The notes: a model not told the origin generated them from the sequence alone. A stretch of DNA of 64,000 bases from Nitrosopumilaceae archaeon (GCA_965208905.1 OZ242365.1:1632001-1696000); one strand, 5' to 3'; positions 3,587-32,527 are shown, counted from the stretch's first letter. Numbers and translations: made by a program.

Positions 3587-3815
3587 ACTGAGTATTGTAT
3601 TGGTGGCATAAAAGGGGTGGGGGCGTCAAGAAACGCAGACTATACAAAACCATCAACGTTGTGGGTTTAAGGGGAAGGGTGGCGGGTGTGCCGGGCCCGC
3701 ACCACCCAGACATGATACAACGAGGGAGAATAAACCCCGCCCGGCTGGTTATACAAAGCATGGTTGCATTTAAGGCCACATATGACGTTAAACGTGGTGG
3801 CACCGTAAGTTAACC

Positions 3816-4622
3816 ATGAGTGCACAATTCCAGGTGAGCAGCGGCAGAAATCAGTACCATCTAATCCCGTATGTTGGCAACAAGTCTGGATTCTCCCACA
3901 TATTTGACAGTCTTATCCCGAATTCAATACGGGGGAAGAATATATTTGATCTGTTCGGTGGCGGGGGGTCGTTCTCCATATACTGTTCGTACAGGTTTGG
4001 CGCCAAATACGTCACGTATAACGACAATAATCCAATAATCACCAATTTTATCGACTGGGTCAGGAGAGATCCAAGGGAACTGGCAGCAGAATACAACACA
4101 CACAGGGAAAAATCAGACAATCAATACTATCTGGGTATACGCGACATGTCGCTGGATGATGGTGTGGTTGGGGCGGGGAGATTCCTGTATCTGGCAAAGA
4201 ACGCATTCTCAGGCAAGATTCGCTTCAACAAACACAATAAATTCAACTCGCCCATGAGGAAAGACTCCAAATGCCCGAATCTGGATGTCGGGCAGTTTAT
4301 GCGCATAAGTGATGCAATACGGGAGATGACAATAACAAATGAGAGTTTTGAGCATTATGTTGATGTTCATGACGGGTTTGTCTATCTGGATCCCCCATAC
4401 ATGGAGAATCCAAACAACCACTACAACGGTGTACCCGATACCGAAGATTTCATCGACTTTGTCAGGAGGGTGGGCAAGCATAACCTGGTGATGATATCCG
4501 AGCAGAATAGGGTTGAACTGCCTGCATCATTTCAAATACATCGCATATTACTGAGGCGTTCACTTCAATACAGAACGCAGACAGACAGTAGGGAGATAAT
4601 CGCCATTAATTACCGCACATGA
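3816..4622 (+). CDS. dam: orphan DNA adenine methyltransferase (D12/Dam class)
   Basis: PYVGNK, DLFGGGGS (motif I) and VYLDPPY (motif IV); TTAAACGT box at 3788-3795. Confidence 0.9.
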   Translation: MSAQFQVSSGRNQYHLIPYVGNKSGFSHIFDSLIPNSIRGKNIFDLFGGGGSFSIYCSYRFGAKYVTYNDNNPIITNFIDWVRRDPRELAAEYNTHREKSDNQYYLGIRDMSLDDGVVGAGRFLYLAKNAFSGKIRFNKHNKFNSPMRKDSKCPNLDVGQFMRISDAIREMTITNESFEHYVDVHDGFVYLDPPYMENPNNHYNGVPDTEDFIDFVRRVGKHNLVMISEQNRVELPASFQIHRILLRRSLQYRTQTDSREIIAINYRT

Positions 4623-4923
4623 TGGGGGGCTGGTAAGAAACGCTGACCTAATCGTCGTTGTTAGTTGGTGGGTGTGCGTTGCTTTTGAGCAGACCGCCGA
4701 ATGATACCAAGCAGACTACCAACAACCATGATGTAGGTCACATCTATCTGTCACGCCGAACAGTACTACAAGCAGCATGGTAGTGAGTAACCCCAGGAAG
4801 ACTTGGCATGGGTGCTGGTGCAAAGCCTGCCGGGGCTGCCGGCGCAGCCGTGGGTAAGGCTGGTGGCGGCCCAGGTACAAAAGCCACATAGCGCCTTAAA
4901 CGTAACCGGTATGATTACGGGGC

Positions 4924-5037
4924 ATGCCGTTCAAGTGCGATTGGTGTGGGGAGATATGCGATGACAGCCTCCGTACAGCAATTCCCAATACATGTCGATA
5001 TTGTGAGGATACGGCTACTGACTTTTCACGGGAATAG
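4924..5037 (+). CDS. 37-aa zinc-finger micro-protein (MPFKCDWCGEIC...CRYC...)
   Basis: Read manually (below ORF cutoff); two CxxC motifs; TTAAACGT box at 4896-4903 just upstream. Confidence 0.5.
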   Translation: MPFKCDWCGEICDDSLRTAIPNTCRYCEDTATDFSRE

Positions 5038-5236
5038 TTTCATACATGAATAAACACTACTCATGCCTTTTTTGGAGCCATGTATTGTACCCTGCGCAGC
5101 GCTGGTTTGTTGCCGCCGTGCCAGAGTGCCAGTTTTGCGGATACGAGATATACAACGGGACAGTCCACAAATTATTGTAATGGGTCAGGAGTCAGGATGT
5201 GTTGCACGTAGATTATCCGGCCTTGCGCAGTACCTT

Positions 5237-5770
5237 TTATCTGTTCTCCAGTTCCATTAGTAGTTGTCGTTTCTTCTGAATGGCATCCAAAAGATGGTTG
5301 GAGTACCACGGGCTTATATGCTCATTGCGCTTGGCTATCTCTTCGTATCGGTCCAGCGGCCCACGGTCACTTAATATCCGCACACATGCATCCATACATT
5401 CCAGTTCAGCATATTCTTTCTGGAGTTTAACCAATTCACGCCCGTCTGCGCGACCGATCTTCTCCTTGACGGCGCGCATCTCTGCCTCATAAAAACACGG
5501 TCTGTCCAAAACTCTCAACTGTTCCACCGACCTCATGAGGGCGCCAGCGAACCAGGGAGATGCGTGTTCGGCGCGCTTGGCTATCTCTTCGTATCGGTCC
5601 AGCGGCCCACGGTCACTTAATATCCGCACACATGCATCCATACATTCCAGTTCAGCATACTCATCTTGGAGTTTGGTTATAATGGTATGATTGCCATTTT
5701 GTTCTGCTCGTCTGATGTCATCAAGTTTGCTTTTCATCTGCGTTGCCCAGTAACCTTCCATACATACCAT
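5237..5770 (-). CDS. hypothetical protein with internal duplicated domain
   Basis: YAELECMDACVRILSDRGPLDRYEEIAKR occurs twice. Confidence 0.65.
   Translation of the reverse strand: MVCMEGYWATQMKSKLDDIRRAEQNGNHTIITKLQDEYAELECMDACVRILSDRGPLDRYEEIAKRAEHASPWFAGALMRSVEQLRVLDRPCFYEAEMRAVKEKIGRADGRELVKLQKEYAELECMDACVRILSDRGPLDRYEEIAKRNEHISPWYSNHLLDAIQKKRQLLMELENR
5327..5659. repeat. perfect 87-bp direct repeat (5327-5413 and 5573-5659)
   Basis: Identical DNA copies 246 bp apart, in frame. Confidence 0.9.
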
Positions 5771-5810
5771 ATACCAACTATGTTTTTAAACGTGGTGCGT
5801 GTAGGAATGT

Positions 5811-5999
5811 GTGTCACCTGAAACCGAATACAACGATCTTATGGATGAAAAAATAAGATTGGGTAAATTTATAGCAGTAGTGGAAAATGAAATATCTCGC
5901 TTCGAAGTTGAGATTGAGGTGGGTAAACTACGCATATCAGAAGCAGAAGATAGAATTACCGAGATTGATGTACGGTTGGCCGAAATTCAGGGCACTTAA
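5811..5999 (+). CDS. small coiled-coil protein
   Basis: Heptad E/K/I pattern; TTAAACGT box at 5786-5793. Confidence 0.55.
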   Translation: MSPETEYNDLMDEKIRLGKFIAVVENEISRFEVEIEVGKLRISEAEDRITEIDVRLAEIQGT

Positions 6000-6155
6000 T
6001 GGTTGGGACTGGTAAGTTAGCGTGAGATACCAGCCTGCGTTTCCACATATGTTGGCGCCGGGTTTCATCAGCACCACCGTACCCCAATCATCAAGATGCA
6101 CCAGTTCCTTGAAGTCGGTACACTTATTTATACATACCAGATCTGGAGTTTGAAA

Positions 6156-8012
6156 ATGATGCCTGACTACGCGGACCTAGAAATGAAGGTGGAACTCACC
6201 GTTATAGAGGATCTTGGCATGAACCTGTACGGCAAGCTCCCTTCAGTCATATCAGAGCTGGTGGCCAACGCGTGGGATGCCGACGCAACCACGGTCAAGA
6301 TAACGCTGGACGAGGGCGAAGTTAACGAGAGCACCAAAATCGTTGTTGAGGATGACGGGTACGGTATGTCGTACGACGACATTCAGGACAAGTATCTGCG
6401 GGTTGGGCGAAAGCGACGCGACGAAGAACGCGAGATAACCCCCAAAGGAAGAAAGGTCATGGGCAGAAAAGGCATAGGCAAGCTGTCGGTGTTTGGAGTG
6501 GCGACCGACACCAAGATCAAAACCGTCATGCAAGGCAAGATGACCGTATTTCAAATGAATGTCGACAATATGATCAAGATGGCCAGGGAAAACCGAAAGT
6601 ACTACCCAGACACAAAATGCCAAAATAGTATGACTGATGAGGTGCAGGGTACCACCATCACGCTCACTAACCTGAAACGAAAGAGCGACATAGATGCCGA
6701 AGCGATTCGGAGAAGCATCGCTAGACATTTTTCCGTAATAGGTGAGGAGTTTACGGTATCGGTAAACGGACGTGACGTTTCGCCCTCCGACAAGATCAAC
6801 AAGTCCGCATTAAAAGAGGATGTGTGGGAGTTTGACGAGTTTGTTGACGATAAGCGCAAATGGCGCGTGTCTGGCTGGATCGGCGCGACGGAGAGTACGC
6901 TGGACGAGGAAGATCTCGGCGTTACGATAATGGCCAGGGGGAAGATGATCCAGAGGTCCACCATGTTTGACGTTAAGAGCGGAAACAGGTTTTACTATTC
7001 GTATATTACGGGACAGATTGACGCAGAATTCTTTGATGCGGAGTTGGATCTCATGTCCACGAACAGACAGTCCGTAATATGGGATACGCCCCAGGGGGAT
7101 ATGTTGAAGAAGTGGGGTGCGGGCAAGATTCGCGAAATATCGGGAAAGTTGGCTGAAACACGAAGAACCCGAAGCGAAGAAATTCTGATGAGCGAGCCGG
7201 AATTTGACGTCTGGCGCAAGGGACTTGAGAGAAGGGAAAGACAGAAGGCAGACAAAATCATATGCATTCTAACTGCAAAAGAGAATATGAGCGATGAGAG
7301 ACGGAAGGAAATCATGCAGCACATCATAACCGTGTTCGAGCAGAACGTGTTTCAGGATCTGTTGGCAGAGCTTGAAAAAAATGAGGATCCGGCTACCCTG
7401 CTGAGCGTATTTGAGCAGTGGGACATAGTAGAAGCGCGCGAGATCGAAAGGGTGGTCAAAGGCAGGCTCAAAACCATAGAAATGTTAAGAGAACATATCG
7501 AGAAACGCTCCACAGAAGTACCAAAACTACACAACTATTTCAAAAAATGGCCTTGGATGCTGGATCCTACTTGGACGAAGTGGCGCCATGAGGTCCACTA
7601 TTCCGAGATTCTACGGCATAATTTTCCAGAAAAACGGCTAAATGAGGGTAATCGCCGCTTGGACTTTATTGCAGTGGGTACGGGTGACACGATACACGTA
7701 GTGGAACTGAAAAGACCAGGATACGCAATAACCGAGAAAGATATGATACAATTGATCAACTACGTGGAATTCGTCAGAGAGAAATTGGGGAACGACGATG
7801 AGAGGGGCTACAGCGCTGTTGCCGGATACATTGTTGCGGGAAAGATACCGCGCTCCCGTACCGTGCGAAAACTGATTGAGGAGGGAAAGCCGTCCAGGCG
7901 CTACGTCAGAACGTACGACGGCTTACTCACGACGGCTAAAACTCTTCATGCCGCATTTGAAGAAAAACTGGCCGAATTCAGTCATTCCACAAGAGACGAT
8001 AAAGATGACTAA
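6156..8012 (+). CDS. GHKL (MORC/HATPase_c_3) ATPase fused to a C-terminal PD-(D/E)xK nuclease
   Basis: ELVANAWDA, DDGYGM, GRKGIGK and GTTITL motifs; RLDFIA...VVELKRPG nuclease motif; start chosen after a TATA-like box at ~6124. Confidence 0.8.
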   Translation: MMPDYADLEMKVELTVIEDLGMNLYGKLPSVISELVANAWDADATTVKITLDEGEVNESTKIVVEDDGYGMSYDDIQDKYLRVGRKRRDEEREITPKGRKVMGRKGIGKLSVFGVATDTKIKTVMQGKMTVFQMNVDNMIKMARENRKYYPDTKCQNSMTDEVQGTTITLTNLKRKSDIDAEAIRRSIARHFSVIGEEFTVSVNGRDVSPSDKINKSALKEDVWEFDEFVDDKRKWRVSGWIGATESTLDEEDLGVTIMARGKMIQRSTMFDVKSGNRFYYSYITGQIDAEFFDAELDLMSTNRQSVIWDTPQGDMLKKWGAGKIREISGKLAETRRTRSEEILMSEPEFDVWRKGLERRERQKADKIICILTAKENMSDERRKEIMQHIITVFEQNVFQDLLAELEKNEDPATLLSVFEQWDIVEAREIERVVKGRLKTIEMLREHIEKRSTEVPKLHNYFKKWPWMLDPTWTKWRHEVHYSEILRHNFPEKRLNEGNRRLDFIAVGTGDTIHVVELKRPGYAITEKDMIQLINYVEFVREKLGNDDERGYSAVAGYIVAGKIPRSRTVRKLIEEGKPSRRYVRTYDGLLTTAKTLHAAFEEKLAEFSHSTRDDKDD

Positions 8013-8114
8013 CAGATTGGATGAAAACCTCTGGAGGAAAAGGTAGGTCTGGTTTGATGTCAAGGCGTTTGAATGCCAGATGCGTGTTTGTCAATCGAAA
8101 ATGCATTGGTCGGA

Positions 8115-9116
8115 TCAAGCAGTTGCATGAACAACTATCGCCTCGCCCAACGCCTTGGCCATGAGCGGCGGTACCGCGTTGCCTATGTGAGCGGCATTTC
8201 TGGTCATGCAGGAGTAAAATACGTAATCGTCACCGAACGACTGGAGAGCCGCCGCCTCGCGTACCGATATTGCCCTATGCTGTTCGGGATGACCGAACCT
8301 CCCGTTGCTAAAACTTATGCACTTGCAGGTAAGAGTCGGAGCGGGTGCGTCCCAGCGCATCCTTCCGTAGGTATCGGTGTGGCCCGTATGATTCAAGTGG
8401 CACCCTGTCCACATACTCCTTTCGGTATCGGTCCTCGATCCGCCGTTTATGGGCGTACGTTTTATCCGTTCTAGGAGTCGATTCGACAGACGGGGCGCAA
8501 CGTGATTTTTCACGTCCGGTACGCTCTGACCCACCTTCATTTCCGGAAAGTGGGATATTGCGTGTCGAACGGTTTTGATCTCGTCGTTGCCGTCGGGTAT
8601 GGATATGCGCCCTTTTCTGGAGGCGAGCAGAACGTAGCGCCGTCGGGTCTGCGGCACCCCGTAGCGTTTGGCGTTGACTACGCGTTCGTCCACAACGTAT
8701 CCGTTATCGTTCAACGTTTTCCGAAAGGCGGTTTTAAACGGGTTGTTCTTGCGGAATCCGGGCACGTTTTCGATCAATATATAGTCCGGTAAAACGTCCT
8801 TGACGATATCCCCTACGCATCCTATCAGGGACCTGCGCTCGTCGTCGGCTCCACGTGGGGCGTGTTGGGAAAACGGTTGGCAGGGGGCGCATCCGGCCAA
8901 CAGCAACCCCTCGTCGCGATTCACCCCGTCTATCACATCGTCCGAAGAGATATCGCGTATGTTTGCGTGAACGAACTCGGCGCCCGGATTGTTTCGTTCG
9001 TAGGTTTCCTTGACGGCTTTGTCCGCGTCTATGCCTCGAACTACTCGTACGCCAGCGTCCAGCAAGCCGCGCGTGAGGCCGCCCGCACCGCAGAATATGT
9101 CGACGCAGTACACCAT
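8115..9116 (-). CDS. dcm: DNA cytosine-5 methyltransferase
   Basis: DIFCGAGG, APCQPFS, ENVPG, PQTRRR and IGNAVPP motifs. Confidence 0.95.
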   Translation of the reverse strand: MVYCVDIFCGAGGLTRGLLDAGVRVVRGIDADKAVKETYERNNPGAEFVHANIRDISSDDVIDGVNRDEGLLLAGCAPCQPFSQHAPRGADDERRSLIGCVGDIVKDVLPDYILIENVPGFRKNNPFKTAFRKTLNDNGYVVDERVVNAKRYGVPQTRRRYVLLASRKGRISIPDGNDEIKTVRHAISHFPEMKVGQSVPDVKNHVAPRLSNRLLERIKRTPINGGSRTDTERSMWTGCHLNHTGHTDTYGRMRWDAPAPTLTCKCISFSNGRFGHPEQHRAISVREAAALQSFGDDYVFYSCMTRNAAHIGNAVPPLMAKALGEAIVVHATA

Positions 9117-9117
9117 G

Positions 9118-9543
9118 TTACGATACCTCCGCCCCGCTATTTATTTTTAGTAAAACCGATTCGGGATCGTTCGCCTCGTGCTCCCATATCTCGACCACGG
9201 CAAATCCCAAAGACTCCAATTCGATTTTTACTTTGTCGCGCCGTCTTCGATTACCTTCTATCTTGGAGCGCCAAAAATCGACGTTGGTTTGGGGCAAGGT
9301 GCGACACGTTGGGCATCCGTGCCAAAAGCAACCGTCCACGAATATCGCCATTCGTTTACTCTTGTTGGATATGTCGGGCGTTCCCGGTAGCGTTCTGTCG
9401 TGTATCCTGTACCGAAAACCGGCCCTCCACAATATTCGACGAACCGAGAGTTCGGGTTTCGTGTTCTTTGACCGTACGCTGGACATTATCCTGCTACGCG
9501 CCTCCGCCGAAACCCGGTCCGTCATTGCTGACGTCTGGTCCAT
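9118..9543 (-). CDS. vsr: very short patch repair endonuclease
   Basis: RSRIMSSVRSKNTKPE, LPGTPDI, FVDGCFWHGC and VVEIWEHE. Confidence 0.95.
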   Translation of the reverse strand: MDQTSAMTDRVSAEARSRIMSSVRSKNTKPELSVRRILWRAGFRYRIHDRTLPGTPDISNKSKRMAIFVDGCFWHGCPTCRTLPQTNVDFWRSKIEGNRRRRDKVKIELESLGFAVVEIWEHEANDPESVLLKINSGAEVS

Positions 9544-10013
9544 GCGGTATTAAACTGTTAAATCTGAAGGGGACCGGTAAGAAATGCTGACTTATACGCG
9601 ACTGGGAAAGTACGGACCTGGAGTCTAGGCGTGTGGAGCGGAAACATACGTAGATCACAAACCCCTCCCGGCCGCCACAACTTTCCCACCCAGCCCAGAT
9701 TAACGACACATACCGTTAATCATACTGAAAAAAATTATTCGGGTGGTTGGTTGTTTACCCAGCCGGTCTGCCATACATGCGGCCTGCGCCAACCGCCGCT
9801 TCTGTATGGCTTCCCGGCCAATGCCAGGTGGCTTACAGGGGCGTGCACGCCTCCAAGGCAGCGTGGTGGCGCGCGGGTAACAATCCGAATCAGACCCAAT
9901 CTGGCGCCCGCCACGCCGTCCCGACCGCTAGAACCATGCACGAGGAGAATCTGGTCTGAACTATTTCGTCCACGTTTACTCATATTTGTGTGAGCTGTGT
10001 AATAATCGGCGCT

Positions 10014-12109
10014 GTAACATGTCACCTCCCCCACTTTCTGTAGTCATGGCATCTATCAAACAGGCGTCATTATCTATGCCAAGATGATGTGTTAAACGGC
10101 AACGAGAGCCAATATGTTGTGCTTAAATAGCGATGTTACGATCTTCTCATGATCACTACAAAATGAGAAGACAGCAACATCACCAACAAACACTTGCAAA
10201 AAGCATATTTAACGATAATCGGTCAATAGGAGATGAACGTGACGCCCTGATAACACAACAGATGGATGAGATAGCACGTCTAAAGGCAGACATCAAGCAT
10301 AATTCCCAAATGTATGATGAAAAGGATGCAGTGTATGTAAAGATAGACAGTAGTGTATGTAAAATCACCGAGCGCTGCAATATGCTCTTCACGAAGGGAA
10401 AATATGACGCAACAGCCAGAGAGCAGATACTGTTGGACCTGTCACGTTCCACTGTAGAATATGCAGACCACAAAAGCCGGGAAACAAAGGAGATAATGAA
10501 AAGACTTGCCGCCATGGCCGGTGAGGTGGAGGATCTCAAGGCAAGGATGAAGGACGTTGAGCGCAGGGACGCTGCAAACGACTCGGGATCGACGCCGCCC
10601 TCACACGGCACCATAACACGGCAGCAGATAAGGGCGCGGCACCAGCAAGAAAACGAACAGGCCGCAACCCCGGCCAAGATGGGCCCGCCAAAGGGTCACA
10701 CGGGCCATGCACGCTCATATGATGTGGATGACAGGGTGGACCTTTCACTTGACACATGTCCTGACTGCGGCCGGCCGCTTGTACGGCTGGACCGATACTC
10801 CAAGGTGGCACTTGAGCTTGAGAAAATCGGAGTTACAGAGAAGCTGTACGACGTGTATCTTTACATGTGCGGCACGTGCGGTCCCATATCAACCGAGCCC
10901 GACTGGATGCTTAACGGCACCAGCATAGGCAAGAAGTGGTTGATCAAAATTATCAGATTGTCTCACACCAACAAGAGCATGTCGGAGTTAAGCGAGACAA
11001 TCGAGATAGCATACGGCAAAAGGCTGTGCCGCGATACACTCAAGAAGGCATTGGAGACAAGCCAAGCCCCGTTGCGGCCGGAGATCGATACAATACAGGC
11101 CAATATCGCAAAATCCGAGTCGGGTCACCTTTATGATACGGTCATGCCCCTTGGCCGGGACAGGAACACATATGACTGCAAGACCCGTGATAGGGCAGGC
11201 GGTAATGGCAATGATGATAACCGGGGCAGGGCAGGCAAAGACGGCCGTATGTGGGTCATGGTCGGGGACAGAAATTGGGTCAGGTACATGGCCGCCCAGA
11301 CACGCACCAAAGCCGAGATGATGGCGAATTTTCCGTATCCAGACCTGCCGATACACTGTGATGCGTATCCCGCACACAATTATTTTCAGGTACGCCAGCT
11401 GTGCTGGGCACATGTCAAGACCAAGGTTGAAAACGGGGTCATCAAGAACGACGCCCCTACAGGACAGTATCTTTATCACCGGCTCATGAACATATACCAT
11501 CATGTCAAGGATCTGCTGCCTGACACGCCAATACAATACATACAACACATCATATCCGAAACAGAGACAATAGGCCGACTCCTCTTGCAGGAGGGCATAA
11601 ATGCCGGAACCTGCGTGCGCAACTGTGCACCATACCTGTTCACGGCAGTCACCCACACGTCCATGGAGTTTACAAACAACCTTGCCGAGCGTCTGCTGCG
11701 CAGGTACGTGATTCGGCGCAAGGTGACATACAGATTTGCCACGCTGCGTGGGGCGCAAAGATACTGCACTATTGCAAGCTGCCTTGAGACGTGGAAGCTT
11801 CAGGGCAGAAACGCCCAGACAGAGCTTGAGCGGCTCTTTGGAATATGACTTGAATCCCTGTACATGCAGGGCCGTAGGAAAACACCAGCCCGCAGAGGGA
11901 CGCACAAGGCTGCGCACATCATTTTGATATCACATATGTGGCAACGGCCCATACCGCACAACAAACCAATTCACGTCAAATCCGCAACAGCCTGTGGACG
12001 TACACTTGCATGACATGGTCATAATACACATCCCATTACCGATTCCGGTGTGATTTTGCACGATGTTCATGCCTGTGCCTAAACAGGTTGGGGGGAGGTG
12101 ACATGTTAC
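10014..12109 (+). mobile_element. IS66-family insertion sequence (single-ORF type)
   Basis: TIRs GTAACATGTCACCTCCCCC (10014-) and GGGGGAGGTGACATGTTAC (-12109); 8-bp TSD TCGGCGCT at 10006-10013 and 12110-12117. Confidence 0.92.
10133..11848 (+). CDS. IS66 transposase (TnpC-like)
   Basis: Coiled coil, NDSGSTPPS, GPPKGHTG, CPDCG zinc finger, CDAY, QLCWAH and TNNLAER. Confidence 0.88.
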   Translation: MLRSSHDHYKMRRQQHHQQTLAKSIFNDNRSIGDERDALITQQMDEIARLKADIKHNSQMYDEKDAVYVKIDSSVCKITERCNMLFTKGKYDATAREQILLDLSRSTVEYADHKSRETKEIMKRLAAMAGEVEDLKARMKDVERRDAANDSGSTPPSHGTITRQQIRARHQQENEQAATPAKMGPPKGHTGHARSYDVDDRVDLSLDTCPDCGRPLVRLDRYSKVALELEKIGVTEKLYDVYLYMCGTCGPISTEPDWMLNGTSIGKKWLIKIIRLSHTNKSMSELSETIEIAYGKRLCRDTLKKALETSQAPLRPEIDTIQANIAKSESGHLYDTVMPLGRDRNTYDCKTRDRAGGNGNDDNRGRAGKDGRMWVMVGDRNWVRYMAAQTRTKAEMMANFPYPDLPIHCDAYPAHNYFQVRQLCWAHVKTKVENGVIKNDAPTGQYLYHRLMNIYHHVKDLLPDTPIQYIQHIISETETIGRLLLQEGINAGTCVRNCAPYLFTAVTHTSMEFTNNLAERLLRRYVIRRKVTYRFATLRGAQRYCTIASCLETWKLQGRNAQTELERLFGI

Positions 12110-12271
12110 TCGGCGCTTGAAAAGTCCATGTGAGATTTACAATATTTTTTCAGAAAGATGTGATTTTTACATTTTACCTAATCTGATGAGGTGTTGCGCA
12201 GCCTGATCCCCACATAGTCTTGTACGGTAGGACCTCTATGATTGTCGGTAGTCAAGGTGTGTCGAGCTCGA

Positions 12272-13741: not shown

Positions 13742-13878
13742 AAATAAGTTATAATGTATTTAAACCCCACACACAGAAAACTATAATGTTGTCCGAGAGT
13801 GACGCTTGCATCGTCCCCCAGTCACACTACAACTTCGATACAACCACGTTTAGATATATCCGGCATCATTGATCATGT

Positions 13879-22400: not shown

Positions 22401-22584
22401 CTACATGCTACACGTACATGTGTTTGATGGCCAGGAATGCCGCACGCGTAGAGTCAAAGACCCATCCAAGTTAAAGACAAAGAAAGAGACAGTGTTTACC
22501 ACACCAAACTCTGAGATTGACCGTCTTGGTGAGGAATACCTTGTAGAATCGGATGTTATGAGGGGAGGTGCGCAGTTCATATAA
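19474..22584 (+). CDS. SNF2-family helicase with C-terminal DUF3883 (NOV_C) nuclease
   Basis: LLADEPGAGKT, DEAH, TATPH and EQRMGRLHRYGQ; GYDILS...IEVKAR. Confidence 0.9.
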   Translation: MKFEDLKTGIMIEGPQWDGPVTLEKFESIGERTKLTTRRDDGNTRTVRVNLKDIHMYNTQHGTPWRTRAAVDMLRHKYARGSGADYGRMDPLPHQIQSIYHITGQYDDIRFLLADEPGAGKTAVASSVIRELQLQGRADRTLIVTPAHLKYQWKEELKRFVGLKSHIIEGSTADPSDPWPDDHNILITSVDYAKRDKRLATLQHTDFDLVVVDEAHHMNSSGKTVSTRYKLERVLSTRTTHMIFLTATPHRGKSENFRLLLNLLKPELFHDGLTPEEVAVRKEPMFLRHLKTDMTDMEGRPIFKARTVKSLKYEMSIPEQGMYRMVSNYVRIQHQRLVAQGEKLAPFVLLLIQKRMASSTYSLQKTLERRRDKLKDYLERDVFPRPNLEYEEVDDEYDEDDPEHERRDDELSGITASRTPEQLEEEISELDDLVKAANEAATTKPDKKLEKLLDIVNNLGGDKLLIFSEYKDTIEYLEKNIGEDTCRIDGDMKQEQRDRAVQEFKDKYRIMLATDAAREGMNMQFCNVMVNYDLPWSPIVLEQRMGRLHRYGQKKDVMIHNMIADNTIEGDVLERLSDKIMEIQKQYKAVDVIGTILSEVNMKDIMIKSIEGRAATGVDDQVQQAKKQLEQAQKMLEHTPVDRDAALRAKEEIDAKRVDGEYLKKMMYGIFEGLGGKIKSTNTKTTLQVPDELRGGPFRRKSESLVGPIQQILSRGTKHYKHVESWVLDNCKGDLLGGSVFAGKHAGHIVFHTTELKDRAGKTVEVLVQAHHIHTDGTVQSVHPDILSELEDVGGDAGSKPEANVVDAAYNDAQVRANQLNEDEREFWRRRIETVDISSGLENLRMEMGEVMNGTPEWREMDERRKRLEEWEDSMERRASTDKLYVEEPVLIGWVKVVKNKETQDTEMRGMNRSMEIERKEGFIPEDVSNKRGLGYDILSKHPDGRERHIEVKARCSFTGIQFTPNEEKARLNDPHYMLHVHVFDGQECRTRRVKDPSKLKTKKETVFTTPNSEIDRLGEEYLVESDVMRGGAQFI

Positions 22585-22786: not shown

Positions 22787-24891
22787 ATGAACAAACCAAC
22801 AATGAAAGAGGTTGAAGAAGAGTGGAATAGAATATTCATGCTTGTTAGGGGTGAAAAGCCGACGGTTCGCCTAACATGCCTCGTAAAGTCCAAGTGGCCC
22901 AAACTGCACAAGAAGATGTGCATTTCGTGGGGGTTCGCGTGGCAGGCAATCGTAACGGGTCTACTTGACCAAAGTGAGGTAGATGTGATTGGTGCGGAAC
23001 GTGATTGTGACTGTATCGAGTGTATAGGTAAAGACCAAAATGATCGCCCGCACGATGTAGACGCACTGGTTAAGCTGAGAGGATATGAAGTGCCGATACA
23101 GATTGGTATGTTTGAAGGGGCGCTGATACATGATTCTGATGTGGTGGACAAAGAGTATGGCGCCGTGGACACCAAATGCATCCACAAGAGGGACACCGAA
23201 CTTATACGTCGCAAAATCCGACAAACACCACCGGACGGCATTACGCTGATTTATACCAACATCGTGGTATCACCAGGTGGTGGTTTTGGGGCATTTAGTT
23301 ACGACGCGGGGTCTCCGGATGATGACTGGTGGTATGAGGGTGTGAGAGACAGGTGCATCATACTATGGCGGAAGCAGAGTGATAAGGTATACCATGTGGT
23401 CAATGAGGATAGTGCGGACAGAAGACTTGTACTGGCACGGAGTGGAACGTGTTCGATATACTATGGTGTGGGAGGCTGTGTGGATGCGGCCAAGGAATTG
23501 TGCGGTGTGTTGGGCTACGAGCGCATCATTCCACAAGTGATAAAACCGCGCCATTCACCAAAAATCCCCAAAGATACACCTCCAATGCCATTCTGTCCGA
23601 GAACGGTGGCCGGCTTAAAAGAAGCAGTAAGTGCAGAACCCAAAAAATGGACCGGTAGCCCTGACAGTGTGATAGCGGCGCTGTACTATCCCGATTATGC
23701 GCGCGCGTATTTCGAGGCGTTGGGGGGCGCCGATAAGGATGTACAAACTAACGGTTTGGTACCCGTACTGCGACATGTGGTGGAGCGGCATGGAGAGTCG
23801 GTGAGGGAGGGTGCCGTTGACGAGGAAAAGTGGCGCCGTTCTGTGTCGGCCGCGTTGTCAACGCTTAAGGTACTAGCCGAAACCAACGACACCAAATTCG
23901 AGCAAAATACATTGGTTGAAATATGCCGCATCTTGCAGGATATCGCGTCTGGACGGCACGAGGATTATGTATGCAAGATGTTGCATCTAGGTGAGATTAA
24001 CAAAAGGTTACACCTTGAGGCGTTGTTTTGCCTTACATATATGGTGATTTACAGACTGGGTGACAGGACACCGCCAGAAGTTTTGGAGACACTAACCACC
24101 GCCGCAAAGGTAGACGGGCAAGATGGAAAAGGGCGCCGTATCGTACTTGGCTATGCATTGCTGATGGGCTCCAACGGGAGATACCTGATTGGTACACCGA
24201 GAACGAATCACTACTCTTCGGCAATGATTCACCCAATGGCATGAACTCGGTTTTGATGCGCGTCTACCTGCGCGACAGACTACCAGACAAGCAAACCATG
24301 GAGAAGTATAACACACTCGTGTTGGAGGCATTGACTGAGGAGATGTTGGATATGAGAGTGTTGGAATCCAAAACCGGAAACCGGGTGAAGATAAACGGCC
24401 CTGTTAGGCATTTCATGATTAGTGTATTGTATGACTGGCGCGGTTATGGAATAGAGGATTCGGTTCGGAATTTGGCCCGCATCGGGCCGGATGCGGTGTG
24501 TATGGCCGGCCACGAGTGCGGACATCTCATTCATGACGAAAACACTGAGAAAAAAATCGTGGATCGCGGCGTGCAGTTCTGGGAGGCGGTTCTAGACTCA
24601 TCGCCGGAGCCGGAGGCGCTGTATGGCTTTGGATGGTGGGCATTGACCAAGTCCATCGACCAAAACACATGGGAACGGTTGATGCTGCGCACATGTGAGA
24701 TTGCCAAGGGTATTGTGGAGAATCCAACTTGGGTGATTGAACGCGCATCATCCGGTTGCAACCCCACAGCTGATGGGATCCAGATTATTGAATCAATACT
24801 ACGCGCCGACAGAAGTATTTCCTCAGACCTTGCCATAAAATGTGATATCATCAAGATGCGGGAGAATAATGTACTGACAGATATCGAATGA
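22787..24891 (+). pseudogene. probable single hypothetical gene split by a frameshift (ORFs 22787-24244 and 24241-24891)
   Basis: The frame of the second ORF stays open upstream with protein-like sequence (GLQREIPDWYTENESLLFG) from ~24166. Confidence 0.5.
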
Positions 24892-25083
24892 TCTGAACCC
24901 AGACCTTTAATGCGCAAATCTTACCTGAGCTGGAAACCAGTGCCGTCCACTTCCAATCCACACACCTAATGTATGATGTACAACTTTGGGTCACGGATTT
25001 CCCAACCGTACACTAGGTCACCATGTTTTCCCACCTCCGGCTTTTCACAACTCTTATAGCACCCAAGTCTGCGCAGGCCACCT

Positions 25084-25776
25084 ATGGACGGATCCATGAA
25101 GAAACCAGACATGACGAACATCTCCGACGCGGCAAAGCAGGCGGCCGGCGAAGCCGAGATGTCGGGCCGCGCCCAAGTGTTCCTTGACTACGACCCCGAC
25201 TACAGGCAGGCAAAGATTACCGTGGGGAGCAACTTCCAAGTGCGGCATCCCAAGGGCACCGAAACGTACTGCGCCGAGTACACCAGGCGCGCGGTGCCGC
25301 TGACTGCCGTATACCGGCACGAGGTGGTTCACAAGGAGCCGCGGCGCAACACTGACGTTGCCAAAGACAAGATAATCGAGGCGCTGGAAAACGAGTGGGA
25401 TCTGTACGTTGGGTACCACACCCCGGAGCCGGAAGTCATACCCCGGTCAATGGAGGACTTTAACTGGGCAGCCAGAACCGCCCATGGCATCCACGGAAAG
25501 CGAACCGTGTCGCTTTGGAGGGAGTGCAGGCTGAAGCGCGAGGACGAACTGTACTTCTTGTGGGTGAGCGCCGACATGGTCAAGAGGGATCCGCCTGGAG
25601 CCGTACAGGTGACAGACCTCTGCTCGTTCGAGGGCGACTACGACTACAAGGAGATGGTAGGCGTGATTGGAAAGGCTGTCCGCGAGTATATGGTAGTGGA
25701 GGATCTGAACCCGCTGTGGTCGCACGACTGCTTCCTGCATCACATGCAGTATAAGTGCCCTCCCGGAACGTCGTGA
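25084..25776 (+). CDS. hypothetical protein
   Basis: 230 aa ORF, GC3-rich codon use. Confidence 0.65.
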   Translation: MDGSMKKPDMTNISDAAKQAAGEAEMSGRAQVFLDYDPDYRQAKITVGSNFQVRHPKGTETYCAEYTRRAVPLTAVYRHEVVHKEPRRNTDVAKDKIIEALENEWDLYVGYHTPEPEVIPRSMEDFNWAARTAHGIHGKRTVSLWRECRLKREDELYFLWVSADMVKRDPPGAVQVTDLCSFEGDYDYKEMVGVIGKAVREYMVVEDLNPLWSHDCFLHHMQYKCPPGTS

Positions 25777-25920
25777 GCCGATAACAGCGTGCTAAGATTG
25801 TATACTACCGTGCTCTTGTAACTGGGTTCTGTCAAAAACTAGGTACATAATGTATAGTGTCAAAAAAGATACATGACATCAAGAATGAAACAAAACTCAT
25901 ACCTCTGATTCTGGTTTAGT

Positions 25921-26091
25921 TACTATGATTCCGCCATACTGTCGGACTTGCGCATATATCACAATTTTGTGATACCACATCAAGGGTTGCCAAACCAAAT
26001 GACGCCCGCTGAGGCCGCAGGTATCCAGATAGAGGGCGCCAACAAATGGATGACACTCATTCAGGCTGCGGCCAAGGCCAAGCAAAAATAA
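25921..26091 (+). pseudogene. C-terminal remnant of a DDE transposase/integrase (IS6-like archaeal type)
   Basis: Translates RIYHNFVIPHQGLPNQMTPAEAAGIQIEGANKWMTLIQAA*, the 'YNx.RPH..L...TPAE' tail of DDE transposases; IS6-like end GGTTCTGTCAAAAAC at 25825. Confidence 0.6.
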
Positions 26092-26427
26092 GTAGTATAT
26101 TTTTCATCTTTTATTCAGCATCAGGGCAGTTCATGTCTGGAGTGGAAACATTGGTCAAATTAGCGGAGTGGAAATTGGGGTCGGAGTGGAAATCTAGGTC
26201 AGGTCAGCACTTCTTCCCACTTCAGGTCAGCACTTTCCCTGGGTCAGCATTTCTTCCCAATTCCGTTGGAGAGGAACTGTCCCATTAACGACACCTGTCC
26301 CAAAGTGGCGCTTGGAATGGAAACGGAGGTCCTGTACGATCAGGCGTTCGGAATGGAAATTGTACATCTGAGATGAAACCCCCCAGCCCCATTGAAGTAG
26401 AACATAATTCATAAACTATGTACGCTG

Positions 26428-29202
26428 TTGAGTGTACCAGTAGTGAACGCCCACTCTCCAAGACAACCGGGCCTACGGGCGGTAACCCAAAAACGGGGCG
26501 CCACACAATACTACAGTATGACTGAGATGTACGTCGTAGGGAGTAGTGGGGCGCCCCGCGCCAGTGGCTTTGCCATGGCATCGATCATGATGTTGCTGCC
26601 GATGATTGCGGGCGTGGTGGCAACGCTGGTAGTATCGTGGGGCGGCTTTATAGAGACCGCCTTCATGGACATGACGCTGAGCCTGGAGGGGTTTGACTAC
26701 AAGTTTGGCCCAGCCAAATGCAACGGCGAGTGGAAGGAGTGCGGCAACGCCACATTTGACGTATACGTGCAGTCAAGAAATCTGTCCATCATGCTGTTTA
26801 TTCTGGCGCTGGTGTTTGTGGCAATAAAGGACATGCTGAGCGCCGGCTTTGACGGCAATATCAGCATGGATGTGGCGGACAACAAAAGCCTCCCCGAACT
26901 TCTCAAGTATTCGGTATTGGTCTTTGTCGTGCTGTTTATCTTCCCGCCCATATGGGATGTTGCGGCAGGTACGATGAACAACGTAGGCGTTTGGATTCTA
27001 AACCCCCACTATAATATTGCGGGGAGCGGCGGTTCGTACACACCCGGCCAGACGCAGGATGCGATGTGCACCGGTATAATTACCTTTGAGGATCTGGCCG
27101 CGCTGGCGCCGGTCGTGCGCAATGCGGACGAGTGGGCCGTATACCAGAACGGGGATGCCGGCCCGCTCGACAACGGCGCTACCGTACCGCACAGGTTCGC
27201 CACAAACATGATTATACAGAAGGGGGAGGTGTTGTCCAACCAGTGCCTGAACCAGGGCATGGACTGTCCAAGTACAATATCCAACCGGCCCCCCGACAAG
27301 CAGTTGGGCGACATACTGTGCAATCCCGACCTGCGCGTAAAGTACGTATTCCAGCAGGCACTCAGCGTAACGGAGACCGAGCCCGCCAATGCCGAGGAGA
27401 TACTGGGCTCGGTAACGGGCAACATCGGCGATGATATTCTCGTAGGGATATTTACGCAGTTCCTAAAGGGTTCAGTGACGATACAGGTGATTATGGTGAC
27501 GTTTATGGTGGGGGTGATGGTGGATGTCGTTACCGCGTTTGCGCTTGCTATCTTGCCGGTGGTGTTCTTTTACCGCTTCCTGCCGATGTCGGGCAAGATA
27601 AAGCTCGGCGATTATTCTGGCGCGGCCTTTGCATTGTTGGCGATGCCGATGATTGCATCCATCATACTGGTTGCGGGTTCTGGTGCGGTTGCGGTCATGG
27701 CCGCCGAGCATCAGGACTTTGCGTCGTTCTTTGTGTGGCTGGCGGCCTTGTCGGTAGTATTGCTTGTGATTGGCATACCGTCTACGATGGTTCCCCTGAT
27801 AGGCGCGGCAACCGCGCAGGCCACGGCTGCAGTTCAGACCGGCGTGCAGACCGCGCAGTTTGCGGTGACTGCCGCGGGCGCGGCCGCAAGCGGGGCGATA
27901 CGGGGACGTGCGCAGTACAGGGCGGGCATGGGAGACTATGCAGGCCTGAAGGGAATGGATAGAAGCAAGATGAGCGCGGCGCAGGTGGCAAGGCTTGATC
28001 AGCTCAAGAAGGAGGGGCATGGCGGCAGGTTTGGCGCGGCGCGCGCGGCGTTTGGCGGCGCTTCGGGCGGACTGCGGGGCGAGATATATGACGACAAGGG
28101 GCAGTTCAGGAAGGAGTTCAGGAATGTCGGGATGCCCGATACGGGCAAACTGCAGGAGGGGTCATTGAGAGGTCTGGGAATGAACGTGGATTCGGGAGCT
28201 CTCCGGGACTCTGCGGCACTTACTACTACTGCGATGCAGGCAAGCCAGGCAGTCGGGCAAAGTGCTATACAGCAGGCATCGGATGCCAAGTGGGATAAGG
28301 AGAAGGAGGCGGCAAAACGACAGGAGGAGGCAAGGCAGGCCGAGGGAAGGGTCAAGACGTCGCAACATATGCAGGATACCACGCATCAGGTTGTCCGGGA
28401 GGCATATGAGTCAGATGATCGTACCAAGACGCTTGTGCAGCAGTCGGAGGTGATTGACGGCCACAAGGCTCGGCTGGAGGGTGCGCAGAAGAATGACAAA
28501 AATCTTATCAGGGGGTGGCAGAGGGCTGTCGGCGAGCACGCGGAGGTCAAAGGACAGCACGAGGCCGCCTGGGGCGAGGTAAAACCTGAGGATGCGGCCG
28601 CGTACAGGAATCTGAAGGATGATGTTGCTGTCAGGGAATCCCGGATTGCACAGATGGGTGCAGAACACAAGGCCGAGATGGAGCAGATGAAAGACGAAGG
28701 CGCTTCACTTGGTGATATTGCACTTCGGCAGGAGGATATGAGTGCCCAGATAGAGAATCTCCGGACTGAGCATGCCAACACTCAGGGTGAGTTGAAGACG
28801 ATGCTGCGGGAGAACGAGAATCTGGGCAAGGCTGCCGGGCTGGACGACTCGCTTGCGCAGTCAGAGGAAGCGATGGAGAAGGCCAAAAAGACCATGGACA
28901 ATAACCAGGCGAATATTGCAAAATTGAATGGTATGTTGGGGGAGCAACGGGCCGAGTACGGACGGTCTTTGCATTACATGGCCGGTATGGCCGGCGCGCT
29001 ATCACCCCAAGTTGCGAATGCCGTGCTGTCGGAGCGGGCGACCTGGGATGCGCTGCAGGAGGCTGAGGCTGATTATAATACTAAATCACTGGTCAGTGAG
29101 TATACACGAGAGGGTGTAATCTTGGATCAGGGAGCTAACCAGCCGGGTGAGTCAAAGAATAAGGAGGGGGATAAGCCGAAACGCCGATTTGTACAGAGGT
29201 GA
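26428..29202 (+). CDS. VirB6/TrbL-like polytopic membrane protein with C-terminal coiled coil
   Basis: Several TM helices, Gly/Ala-rich segment and long coiled coil; VirB4 on the same element; true start probably ~26518-26575. Confidence 0.65.
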   Translation: MSVPVVNAHSPRQPGLRAVTQKRGATQYYSMTEMYVVGSSGAPRASGFAMASIMMLLPMIAGVVATLVVSWGGFIETAFMDMTLSLEGFDYKFGPAKCNGEWKECGNATFDVYVQSRNLSIMLFILALVFVAIKDMLSAGFDGNISMDVADNKSLPELLKYSVLVFVVLFIFPPIWDVAAGTMNNVGVWILNPHYNIAGSGGSYTPGQTQDAMCTGIITFEDLAALAPVVRNADEWAVYQNGDAGPLDNGATVPHRFATNMIIQKGEVLSNQCLNQGMDCPSTISNRPPDKQLGDILCNPDLRVKYVFQQALSVTETEPANAEEILGSVTGNIGDDILVGIFTQFLKGSVTIQVIMVTFMVGVMVDVVTAFALAILPVVFFYRFLPMSGKIKLGDYSGAAFALLAMPMIASIILVAGSGAVAVMAAEHQDFASFFVWLAALSVVLLVIGIPSTMVPLIGAATAQATAAVQTGVQTAQFAVTAAGAAASGAIRGRAQYRAGMGDYAGLKGMDRSKMSAAQVARLDQLKKEGHGGRFGAARAAFGGASGGLRGEIYDDKGQFRKEFRNVGMPDTGKLQEGSLRGLGMNVDSGALRDSAALTTTAMQASQAVGQSAIQQASDAKWDKEKEAAKRQEEARQAEGRVKTSQHMQDTTHQVVREAYESDDRTKTLVQQSEVIDGHKARLEGAQKNDKNLIRGWQRAVGEHAEVKGQHEAAWGEVKPEDAAAYRNLKDDVAVRESRIAQMGAEHKAEMEQMKDEGASLGDIALRQEDMSAQIENLRTEHANTQGELKTMLRENENLGKAAGLDDSLAQSEEAMEKAKKTMDNNQANIAKLNGMLGEQRAEYGRSLHYMAGMAGALSPQVANAVLSERATWDALQEAEADYNTKSLVSEYTREGVILDQGANQPGESKNKEGDKPKRRFVQR

Positions 29203-29221
29203 TAGTCAACTCCAACAGAAA

Positions 29222-29596
29222 TCAGGTGTGCTTGAAAACCATGTCCGGCATTCCAAACCCGTACACGTATCCCGGCAGCGGCTTCTCTTCCATATTCGTC
29301 TCAAGTTTGTTGTGATTGTGGATGTAGCCCTCATTGCCAGTGTAGAGTATCTTATACCATTCACGCACATCAATCCCTAACTCCTTTGCATTTTTTTGGT
29401 TTTCTGGGTCATGGCACCATCCATTGTAGTTGAGGATATCCCGGTATTTGCCTGGTATTTTTTCAAGCTCTGCTTCAAACCGCTTACCTTCCTCATCCGT
29501 CCAGTCCTCGGGGTTTTTTCCCTTCAGGTGCGCCCTCTCGACTGTAATGTCAAACATCTTTAACGACTTGATATGTTCTTCTTCGCTTGGGTACAT
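29222..29596 (-). CDS. hypothetical protein
   Basis: Start moved to MYPSEE because a CCTTATAT box lies 22 nt upstream; the longer ORF runs into the repeat array. Confidence 0.55.
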   Translation of the reverse strand: MYPSEEEHIKSLKMFDITVERAHLKGKNPEDWTDEEGKRFEAELEKIPGKYRDILNYNGWCHDPENQKNAKELGIDVREWYKILYTGNEGYIHNHNKLETNMEEKPLPGYVYGFGMPDMVFKHT

Positions 29597-29632
29597 GTTG
29601 TTGTTTAGTACCCATCCCATATAAGGGACTAA

Positions 29633-30030
29633 TTTCAATGGGCCGGGGGCTTTTGCCCCCAGAAAGGATGAAGAAGTCACACGAGGCCGAGATTGAGAAG
29701 ATACTTCAATGGGGCCGGAGGTTTTCACCCCCGGAAAGACTGTGAATACTTCCATCATCCTGTTGTTCACCCCGTCCAACATAGTAATCATCACGTTTAA
29801 GGTTCCATATAACAACGTACATAATGTATGAATCATGGTCTACTTCAATGGGGCCGGGGACGTTCACCCCAGACACCCTCAACAACGTACATAGTTTATG
29901 AATCTCATTTCAATCTGGTCGGGGGTTTCACTCCCAACATACTCAACAACGTACATAAGATATGAATGGTGGTTCGCCGCCAACATCTGTTGTACTGGGC
30001 GCAAGCCCAACTGTACAACAGGCTGGCATC
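29633..30030 (+). repeat. degenerate ~65-70 bp tandem hairpin repeats related to the tnpB omegaRNA
   Basis: TTCAAT-GG..CGGGG-loop-CCCC units at ~29633, 29705, 29844 and 29909; AACAACGTACATAnnnTATGAAT at 29811, 29881 and 29946. Confidence 0.7.
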
Positions 30031-30918
30031 TTACGTTAACTTACCGGTTCCCTTACGCTTTGCTCGGTCTAGTGGCTGAAGTTTAGAGCGTAGGATGTTC
30101 TCAAACTCATGGCGTTTTATACGTTCGGCTGCAAGCAGTTTGGTGGTTGAGTCTTCCAGGGGCAACACTTCCCAATGCCGTACCTCAAGATTGCGTTTCT
30201 CTGACACGCCAACCACCAACCATATAATGTCGCCCTCGTTAATGTCATGAGATGGTTTGTTGCTAGCTCCACCAACAGCCTCAAAAAAGTTCTCGTCCAT
30301 AGCCACGGCCATCTTGGTCCCCCATTGTCGTAGCATGGGAACCTTTGTTTGGAGTTGCGGCATGAGCCGCTTTGCGCCGGATGAGCGCCAGTCGGGGCGA
30401 CGGAGTCTGTTTGGATATGGTGGTTTGTTCTGATTATCCTGTTCAAGAATCTCAAACTCTATTGACATGTTAGGGCCTGAGAAGTAAACTGCTTGTATTT
30501 CCAATCCATACCACTTGGGTCCGTCCTTGCCATCGGCCAGCACTAAATCTATGAGGCCCGCCGCCTTGTTTGTTGTTGGCGACCGCATGAATGGCACCTC
30601 ACGCGCTATGAACGACTTTGACTTATCAAATTTCACCACGCTTGCTAGATGTTTTAGAATTGTATCATCCTGATCGAATCTCTGCGGGCATAATATGACC
30701 GGGCTTCCTACTGGCTTGCCTAGACGGTCACCGTCCTGTTCGTATTCTTGAAATGAACAGACGCCTCCCCTTTTCCCACAAGCAACACTACCAGCCTGAA
30801 ACGGGCACTTGGGCGGGGTTGCCTTCTGTGAAACAATTTTTGCCAGTTCTTGGCGACGTTTCGGAGGCATTACGGCGAACGGTTCCCCAAACCACTCCAT
30901 TATTCCATAGCGCGTCAT
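30031..30918 (-). CDS. NotI-family restriction endonuclease
   Basis: EWFG, CPF...C.KRGGVCS...CPQRF (Cys4), IDLVL...LEIQAVYFSG and RPDWRSSGAKRLMPQL. Confidence 0.85.
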   Translation of the reverse strand: MTRYGIMEWFGEPFAVMPPKRRQELAKIVSQKATPPKCPFQAGSVACGKRGGVCSFQEYEQDGDRLGKPVGSPVILCPQRFDQDDTILKHLASVVKFDKSKSFIAREVPFMRSPTTNKAAGLIDLVLADGKDGPKWYGLEIQAVYFSGPNMSIEFEILEQDNQNKPPYPNRLRRPDWRSSGAKRLMPQLQTKVPMLRQWGTKMAVAMDENFFEAVGGASNKPSHDINEGDIIWLVVGVSEKRNLEVRHWEVLPLEDSTTKLLAAERIKRHEFENILRSKLQPLDRAKRKGTGKLT

Positions 30919-32518: not shown

Positions 32519-32527
32519 TATGAGATT

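Follow-up and report, generated by a model that had tools for sequence, protein, structure and literature searches.

A 12-nt core, GGrrCTGGkAAG, recurs along a 64,000-nt stretch of a Nitrosopumilaceae archaeon genome (GCA_965208905.1 OZ242365.1; the window, bases 1,632,001–1,696,000; the genome is one contig of 2.21 Mb, 45.6% G+C) and probably forms the extreme end of the terminal inverted repeats (TIRs) of a thaumarchaeal IS6-like transposon family. The original prediction had read the core differently, as an ordered pair of directly repeated sites (core followed by TTA at one side, core followed by AAA at the other) that bracketed three cargo modules as attL/attR products of cassette integration or as IS6-type translocatable units. 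The proposed family would take three forms: autonomous elements encoding a 376–419-aa DDE transposase built from a SWIM zinc finger, a CxxC zinc ribbon, and an IS6-type catalytic core; miniature copies of 130–600 bp; and transposase-less "mobile insertion cassettes" (MICs) with restriction-modification (R-M), defence, or repair genes, which would have to move in trans. Insertion would duplicate 8 bp of target. We infer both what the sub-terminal repeats do and that one transposase acts on all end subfamilies. Coordinates prefixed g or G000 refer to the host genome, and all others refer to the window.

Core and arm together make a genuine motif that chance cannot account for, whereas the core alone is barely above the random level. 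In the window, the core gave 24 matches at ≤2 mismatches versus 12.7 ± 3.8 expected (1 of 100 shuffles reached 24), and the core with the arm AAGAAAYGCTGAC gave 7 matches at ≤1 mismatch versus 0.08 expected (0 of 100 shuffles reached 7). Genome-wide, 18 exact copies of the arm were present, with approximately 0.13 expected by rough estimate. Most of the sites first listed were sound, with exact cores at 6005(+), 9570(+), and 30051(−) and mismatched cores at 4626(+) (one mismatch), 26264(−) (two), and 34021(+) (two); two were not. Site 3799 has no core match at ≤2 mismatches, aligns only with an indel, and diverges from the other TTA sites after about 18 nt, and dam homologues of relatives begin to match only at about 3828. 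Site 63411(−) is a part-core (CTGGTAAG), with an IS110-like element (63404–65085) lying inside the core. The reported identity of sites 6005 and 30051 at 28/33 nt was confirmed (alignment A1), and, being on opposite strands, the two form an inverted repeat with a spacing of 24 kb; the NotI open reading frame (ORF) (30031–30918, minus strand) does take its TAA stop codon, at 30033–30031, from the arm of the 30051 site. Further ends beyond those first listed were found at 3619(+), ~9990(+), 25038(−), and 26273(+) (Table 1). The tips at 26273(+) and 26264(−) stand back to back, 8 nt apart, and the end type of the former also flanks TnpB elements.

The scan of the genome that had been suggested for these sites revealed a dispersed family. 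A profile built from 26 ends and searched with nhmmer gave 69 matches at E ≤ 1. Of these, 53 reached E < 1e-3 and came from both strands; counted in successive 250-kb bins they number 0, 0, 0, 2, 6, 11, 17, 12, and 5, so that none lies in the first 750 kb and they are concentrated in the repeat-rich second half. Across 37 complete tips, information was 0.11 bits per position at −30 to −1, 1.61 at +1 to +12, and 1.37 at +13 to +23, the right-hand values arising partly by construction, as the profile was built on that side, and the left-hand value being a free test. The near absence of information 5′ of the core indicates that the core is a terminus and not the middle of a two-armed site. Each end consists of the core followed by two or three short sub-repeats, conserved on one side only. 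The division into AAA and TTA sites was not clean, since positions +13 to +15 may also read ATA, AGA, or ACA and TTA sometimes precedes the "AAA-type" GTGACC; "AAA" and "TTA" are subfamily-specific sub-terminal arms of one end family. These arms carry two or three short repeats, GGAAAnnnnTGACC-like or GTGAGAT-like, which are probably transposase-binding sites. Elsewhere, recurrence of the exact AAA end was confined to two related archaeal assemblies (10 matches, 8 loci), the remaining 35 loci being single matches in unrelated organisms, with about 17 expected by chance on a rough estimate.

Many ends pair up in inverted orientation at distances of 130 bp to 9 kb, and in two of these pairs the 40-nt TIRs are perfect. 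Among complete (+)/(−) tips lying 80–12,000 bp apart (n = 16), 4 pairs had flanks identical at 8/8 positions (GATATGGT, TAATTTTT, TATGACAT, and CCTAAAAC), versus 0 of 496 controls in which the flanks were shifted 9–39 nt outward and one of which reached 7/8. Inverted pairs with 8-bp target duplications point to DDE transposition and not to site-specific recombination. The pair at g1755517–1756105 is a 589-bp unit with a perfect 40-nt TIR, the duplication TATGACAT, and no ORF of ≥100 aa, and that at g1447774–1450269 has a perfect 40-nt TIR and RmuC cargo with no duplication. Across the genome, inverted pairs enclose either nothing or RmuC, an OLD/TOPRIM protein, an Eco57I-like methylase-nuclease, or a nested IS630. 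Inverted ends, a target duplication, and the lack of a transposase gene, with or without passengers, are the hallmarks of miniature inverted-repeat transposable elements (MITEs) and MICs, and all were found here. The IS630-like transposase inside g1471027–1472847 was considered as owner of the ends and rejected, as it belongs to an independent 1,114-bp insertion sequence (IS) with about 15 copies that is nested in a nonautonomous element.

A candidate for the cognate transposase is a 419-aa protein encoded inside a TTA-type inverted pair, with Pfam matches to DDE_Tnp_IS240 (54.1 bits; cut-off, 27) and rve. Candidate D, D, and E residues were read by eye, as were an N-terminal SWIM-type finger and CxxC ribbon, PF04434 being precomputed for some homologues. 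The host genome has 14 matches to this transposase, with copies of 390–419 aa; several adjoin ends and read toward the tip, and that at g1100973–1102241 lies within an 8,983-bp element carrying the duplication GATATGGT. A full copy is found at window-equivalent 76382–77707, about 12 kb past the window end. According to the original prediction, no recombinase could be identified in the window, and indeed no integrase or resolvase family was found in the 40 ORFs searched for families out of 74 given by a greedy ORF call; what the window does hold is a remnant of the IS6-like transposase at 25927–26061(+), comprising the last 45 codons and reading toward the 26264 tip (tblastn, residues 367–411, 73%, E 1.7e-16). 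Over 308 nt, the 26264 end and the transposase-bearing end g1100775–1101079 share 86% identity.

Copies of the transposase within the host are alike only over the ORF, so that IS boundaries could not be read there and relatives were used instead. A blind inverted-repeat search around transposase copies found repeats at only 1 of 12, because the ends vary too much between subfamilies. One relative (G022) carries two copies of a 2,825-bp element with a perfect 50-nt TIR and a 376-aa transposase; its TIR has the same design as host ends (GG..CTG......GGTGACC plus a second GTGACC repeat), and the duplication AAATTAAC flanks one of the two copies. Another (G005) has three identical copies in which a TTA-type tip and arm (GGCAACTGGGAAG, then TTAGCGTGTGAT) form the left end beside the transposase gene, this arm matching sites 6005 and 30051 over their initial 24 nt. 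The transposase was found in 18 of the 41 related genomes searched (host included), and of nine other species in the genus, 7 have it. The closest named homologues of the window's transposases are from Cenarchaeum sp. and Thaumarchaeota/Nitrosopumilaceae archaeon, and public runs with related DNA carry the label sponge metagenome.

Contigs of two sponge-metagenome runs, X1 (independent, and roughly 90–95% identical to the window) and X2, allowed a comparison with related strains; their cover was patchy, and uncovered parts (e.g., 6671–8004 in both) were not counted as absence. Homology with X1 stops at 6004, where the contig carries on into unlike sequence containing a different end tip, and again at 9572, and a joint of 3619 to 3733 leaves out 3620–3732. 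Thus, the cores at 6005, 9570, and 3619 are true edges of variable DNA, and coincidence of breakpoints with cores, the test by which the original prediction had proposed to be judged, was observed as far as module edges are concerned. Two other X1 joints run from 6241 to 8134, so that the greater part of the MORC-like gene is left out, and from 9769 back to 3732, and a 488-nt X2 contig (4279–4764) crosses 4626 unbroken. Along the window the ends run (+) 3619, 4626, 6005, 9570, and ~9990; (−) 25038 and 26264; (+) 26273; (−) 30051; (+) 34021; and (−) 63415. Such a run of left ends followed by right ends fits nested insertion, in which case the apparent "TTA...AAA direct pairs" would be by-products of nesting. 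Sites 6005 and 30051 would then form an inverted pair around 24 kb, with 9570 and 26264 perhaps an inner pair, among insertions that nested in or adjoined one another before deletion and recombination disordered them. The picture reads best as one of old, rearranged insertions. Since flank reading found no target duplication at the window pairs 6005/30051, 9570/26264, or 34021/63415, nesting here is a reading and not a demonstration.

That lack of duplications in the window is one of several points that weigh against assigning the ends to an IS6-like family. Twelve of the 16 genome-wide pairs also have no duplication, although some are mis-paired neighbouring ends; the TTA subfamily has no duplicated pair, and its g1130912–1134320 copy has 50-nt TIRs with unlike flanks. 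The transposase scored 99.2 bits against NCBIfam transpos_IS6, below the curated cut-off of 125, although the whole profile (1–202) was aligned (E 2.5e-28). Its copies share approximately 65–80% DNA identity, over the ORF only, except in one segmental duplication, with no sign of a recent burst. As given in parts of the IS6 review, the norm for the family is 0.7–0.9 kb, one ORF, inverted repeats of ~14 bp, and a transposase of 213–254 aa (PMC7986276), whereas the elements described here measure 1.5–9 kb, with 40–50-nt TIRs, sub-terminal repeats, and a 376–419-aa transposase with a SWIM finger. Moreover, all three TTA sites stand just upstream of a gene start, which would also fit a promoter module. 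Finally, some multi-copy segments are one-ended, with a tip at the start and no inverted partner, namely an 8,278-bp DUF499 module and a 3.8-kb stretch in all three G005 copies. The former, encoding a DUF499 protein, a DUF1156 methylase, and an SNF2-NOV_C protein, has three copies in the genome (window 14357–22430, G000 140415–148692, and G000 1116873–1125150), of which the two outside the window agree at 99.87% over 8,278 bp, with 73% identity between them and the window copy. Each begins at an end tip, in the window the ~9990 tip that an IS66 element splits, and none has a recognisable inverted partner. Simple two-ended transposition is therefore insufficient for these segments, which could have arisen by one-ended movement, recombination between paralogues, or truncation.

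The TTA-type sites have an internal structure of their own. A unit of about 55–82 nt is common to 6005, 30051(−), window-equivalent 79193(−), and one locus of a relative (G008), in the order tip, TTARCGTRAGAT, hairpin, and ATGTTGGCG; positions 6005–6086 are 93% identical over 82 nt to the G008 locus, with different DNA downstream. In about 15 TnpB copies, the same hairpin block closes the TnpB gene region on its 3′ side. By eye, stem variants are matched on both sides (CTGCCG/CGGCAG, CTGTTG/CAACAG, and CTGTG/CACAG), and these changes look compensatory. Following the TnpB hairpin are 25–70 nt ending in a GGrrCTG-type tip, and this stretch after the guide-RNA-like hairpin is the end repeat, conserved within subfamilies. 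TTA units thus seem to combine an end with what is left of a TnpB guide-RNA region. Genes for TnpB (IS605 OrfB-type) lie at 59404–60918 and 45866–47403, with about 15 more copies in G000, and the 59404–60918 element has apparent inverted GGrrCTG-type tips at its boundaries, by eye. TnpB may possibly be homing into a miniature-element family; if so, copies of the end family would be homing targets for an RNA-guided TnpB nuclease. Beside this TnpB element, at 59070–59379, is a perfect 50-bp tandem repeat of about six units.

Alternatively, the TTA units, and perhaps the AAA arrays, could be portable promoter or operator blocks that are bound by an element-encoded regulator and spread by recombination. 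The TTA sites lie 17–215 nt upstream of ORF starts that point away from the tip (3816, 6096, and 29836), the 6005 unit is retained in G008 before different DNA, the arms carry operator-like arrays of short repeats, and three TFB paralogues are encoded in the window. We consider this unlikely, as it leaves unexplained the inverted pairs with 8-bp duplications, the gene-less miniature copies, and the transposase genes beside ends. Outward promoters are described as common at IS ends in sections of the IS6 review (PMC7986276), and promoter activity would be more an added property of transposon ends than a rival to them.

Entry of cassettes by an integrase-type enzyme, with the core as crossover site and attL/attR-like direct repeats at module edges, is very unlikely. 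Directly oriented cores do flank two modules (6005 to 9570 and 30051 to 26264), related-strain breaks fall exactly at cores, the window pairs lack target duplications, and two multi-copy segments are one-ended, all as this explanation would have it. However, attL and attR should share opposite-side arms, and sequence 5′ of the core, at 0.11 bits per position, shows no such sharing; the core has no dyad symmetry; and neither arms on both sides of the core nor a linked recombinase was found, the latter among the 40 of 74 window ORFs scanned. One-sided conservation, ends on both strands, and inverted pairs with 8-bp duplications (4/16 versus 0/496) likewise do not suit attL/attR products. The ordered TTA...AAA pairing failed as well, a TTA-type end being present at 0 of the 8 AAA-end loci in the two related archaeal assemblies. 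The idea of a new cassette-integration system thus gives way to a simpler and testable one, that the cores are transposon ends.

Two other elements have inserted into these tips. The first is the IS110-like element of 1,682 bp at 63404–65085 (past the window end), with DEDD and Transposase_20 domains and a score of 188.7 bits against NCBIfam transpos_IS110 (cut-off, 140), obtained on a 100%-identical copy. Other copies lie at G000 1374833–1376514 and 1907134–1908838, with a remnant at 140125–140327, and the three full copies and the remnant all abut CTGGTAA(G). At two insertions with different arms the element sits between GGGAA-CT and CT-GGTAAG, with no TIRs and a 2-nt overlap (CT) at both junctions. 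Within its 215-nt 5′ noncoding region, GGAACTGG and CTTACCAG, 8-nt matches to the two core halves on opposite strands, flank a GC-rich hairpin, and on either side of another hairpin like it stand words that match the element's own two ends (AAGCTT and ATGGAAGTT). A layout with a target loop and a donor loop is expected of a bridge RNA, according to portions of two papers (PMC11208160, PMC11208158), and the tip appears to be the programmed target of this element's predicted bridge RNA. The features of the IS110 family, a DEDD transposase, lack of TIRs, and sequence-specific RNA-guided insertion, are thus all found or, for the guide RNA, predicted at 63404–65085. A bridge-RNA recombinase of this kind that shuffled DNA between cores, conserved as its programmed targets, would account for the four tip junctions followed by different arms and for the core halves around the hairpin, but it is highly unlikely, given 3 full copies versus 53 ends, the non-IS110 character of the arms, sub-terminal repeats, and 8-bp duplications, and the joining of a donor (IS ends) with a target, not of two targets, in known bridge recombination as parts of those papers present it (PMC11208160, PMC11208158). 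More plausibly, the IS110-like element is a secondary invader that parasitises the ends.

The second invader is an IS66-family IS at 10014–12109, with TIRs starting GTAACATG and the 8-bp duplication TCGGCGCT, inserted into an end tip. Its 571-aa transposase (10133–11848) matches Pfam PF03050 and scores 128.8 bits against NCBIfam IS66, below the cut-off of 180. A second copy (G000 1540360–1542456) is 98.5% identical and has the duplication TAGAAAAA. This transposase, downstream of 9570, was considered as owner of the AAA ends and rejected, as it belongs to a separate 2.1-kb unit with its own GTAA... TIRs and 8-bp duplication.

More tentatively, and with considerable doubt, a single 12-nt tip may serve three mobility systems in sponge-associated ammonia-oxidising archaea: an IS6-like transposase that moves autonomous elements, miniature elements, and defence or R-M cassettes, yielding defence islands by nested insertion; TnpB/guide-RNA units inside the ends; and an IS110 bridge-RNA element programmed against the tip. 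If all three hold, a layered economy of "parasites of parasites" would exist around one site. An IS110 RNA region with both tip halves, and TnpB units lodged inside ends, may also be of interest to the study of RNA-guided transposon enzymes.

Table 1. Transposon ends and gene content of the window
Feature	Position	Strand	Evidence or remarks
Degenerate AAA-type end tip	3619-3640	+	Arm match, 1 mismatch; related-strain joint 3619 to 3733
"TTA site" of the original prediction, before dam	3799-3814	+	Weak, probably non-member
D12-class N6-adenine DNA methyltransferase (dam-like)	3816-4622	+	Pfam PF02086, E 3.2e-23
AAA-type end tip, solo, truncated	4626-4662	+	nhmmer E 2.7e-6, profile positions 1-37
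TTA-type end unit: 12-nt tip, TTAGCGTGAGAT, hairpin-bearing stretch	6005-6086	+	Exact core
MORC-like GHKL ATPase	6096-8012	+	Pfam PF13589
C5 cytosine methylase	8115-9116	-	Pfam PF00145
Vsr endonuclease	9118-9543	-	Pfam PF03852
AAA-type end tip with sub-terminal repeats	9570-9637	+	Exact core; nhmmer E 1.7e-11, profile 1-68
End tip split by IS66-family IS	~9990-10013, resumes 12110-12174	+	
DUF499 protein, DUF1156 methylase, SNF2 helicase with NOV_C (defence-type module)	14399-22584	+	Pfam
End absent from the original prediction	25038	-	
Right-end fragment of autonomous IS6-like element	25925-26264	-	Tip 26264, three sub-terminal repeats, last 45 transposase codons
Third-subfamily end tip (GGAACTGTCCC...)	26273-26310	+	Sequence reading
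TTA-type end unit, inverted partner-like copy of 6005-6086	29955-30051	-	Exact core, alignment A1; supplies NotI stop codon
NotI-family restriction endonuclease and D12-class methyltransferase	30031-31811	-	Pfam PF12183, E 3.2e-45; PF02086, E 1.7e-12
AAA-type end tip	34021-34078	+	nhmmer E 1.8e-10
AAA-type end, tip ~63415, split inside core by IS110-like element	63348-64000	-	
HerA/TraG-like ATPase	First 36 kb of window		Pfam scan
Second GHKL ATPase	First 36 kb of window		

Several ORFs in the first 36 kb had no assigned family in the ORF scan. The NotI-type nuclease and its D12 methyltransferase form the flank of the 30051 end. The virB6 gene placed between 26264 and 30051 by the original prediction could not be confirmed: the largest ORFs there, 26428–29202(+) and 29222–29836(−), matched no Pfam or NCBIfam family, small minus-strand ORFs of this interval lying outside the scan. 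Inverted repeats of 63–90 nt (26367–26452 and 29811–29903; 83% complementary) span the upstream regions and first codons of these two convergent ORFs, and with a direct copy at 29881–29967 they look like a duplicated 5′ or promoter module.

Three TFIIB/TFB paralogues (34182–35108, 38092–39000, and 57955–58770), which mark the DNA as archaeal, lie within 25 kb, alongside a primase-large-subunit-like ORF, an ArdC-like ORF, a T2SS-F-like membrane protein, and large family-less ORFs; the gene content between the ends 34021 and 63415 resembles that of an integrated conjugative or plasmid-like element. Inside the mobile region there are also tRNA-like genes, at 32528–32679 (Ser-ACT and Arg-TCG, adjacent) and 40832–40904 (Met-CAT). 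The segment 40850–40903 is 85% identical to G000 237787–237840, and this match may indicate where a larger element was integrated at an integrase-type attachment site. An Rfam scan of the window gave tRNA-like matches only (32528–32599 and 40832–40903) and none at core sites, and queries 3000–12000 and 24000–36000 found no match in a plasmid database. A dispersed 164-bp repeat at 62379–62542, with about 19 copies of 84–90% identity genome-wide, is also present in the first 750 kb, where IS6-like ends are absent, and is a separate miniature-element family.

Among known systems, the IS110 family is matched by the secondary invader of the core, which inserts into a repeated sequence and has a 5′ RNA region with both target halves, but which is not the maker of the modules. 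Integron cassettes and the Xer-dependent dif modules of Acinetobacter plasmids are moved by site-specific recombinases at two-armed sites without target duplication. The modules described here resemble them as small groups of genes with a recurring short edge site, in mosaics of defence or resistance genes, and differ in that the site is one-sided, occurs in inverted pairs, and is accompanied by 8-bp duplications. The likeness to MITEs and MICs extends to inverted ends with a target duplication and no transposase, either empty or with passengers (RmuC, OLD/TOPRIM, and R-M). MIC231 of Bacillus cereus is an example of an MIC. Unlike MIC231-type elements, those described here have a thaumarchaeal host, an IS6-like and not an IS4/IS231-like parent, and mostly defence or R-M cargo; a related autonomous element presumably mobilises them in trans. 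Mobile elements of thaumarchaeal symbionts have been catalogued, in the parts of one survey that bear on them, mainly as integrase-borne elements and short ISs (PMC6563490), and transposon ends of this kind would offer a concrete mechanism for assembling R-M and defence genes into islands of such genomes.

The parent itself is most like the IS6 (IS26) family, with which it shares the DDE_Tnp_IS240 domain, full-length alignment to the NCBIfam IS6 profile at a score under its cut-off, an 8-bp target duplication, and ends that begin with GG. The IS26 end, which we take to be GGCACTG..., resembles these tips. As for the transposase, an N-terminal zinc-finger extension is known in IS6 clades h and i, according to parts of the IS6 review (PMC7986276), these longer forms being bacterial. 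In the same parts of the review, the family appears as homogeneous, at about 0.8 kb, with two MITEs and one passenger-carrying IS in total (PMC7986276), whereas the present family has many miniature and cargo-carrying derivatives. The prediction of IS6-type translocatable units was therefore right as to the family, although the directly repeated whole-IS ("pseudo-compound") arrangement around cargo was seen neither in the window nor at the loci read. In sum, we regard these ends as belonging to a long-transposase, long-TIR variant of IS6 with abundant miniature and cargo derivatives, which would widen the IS6 family beyond the review's description.

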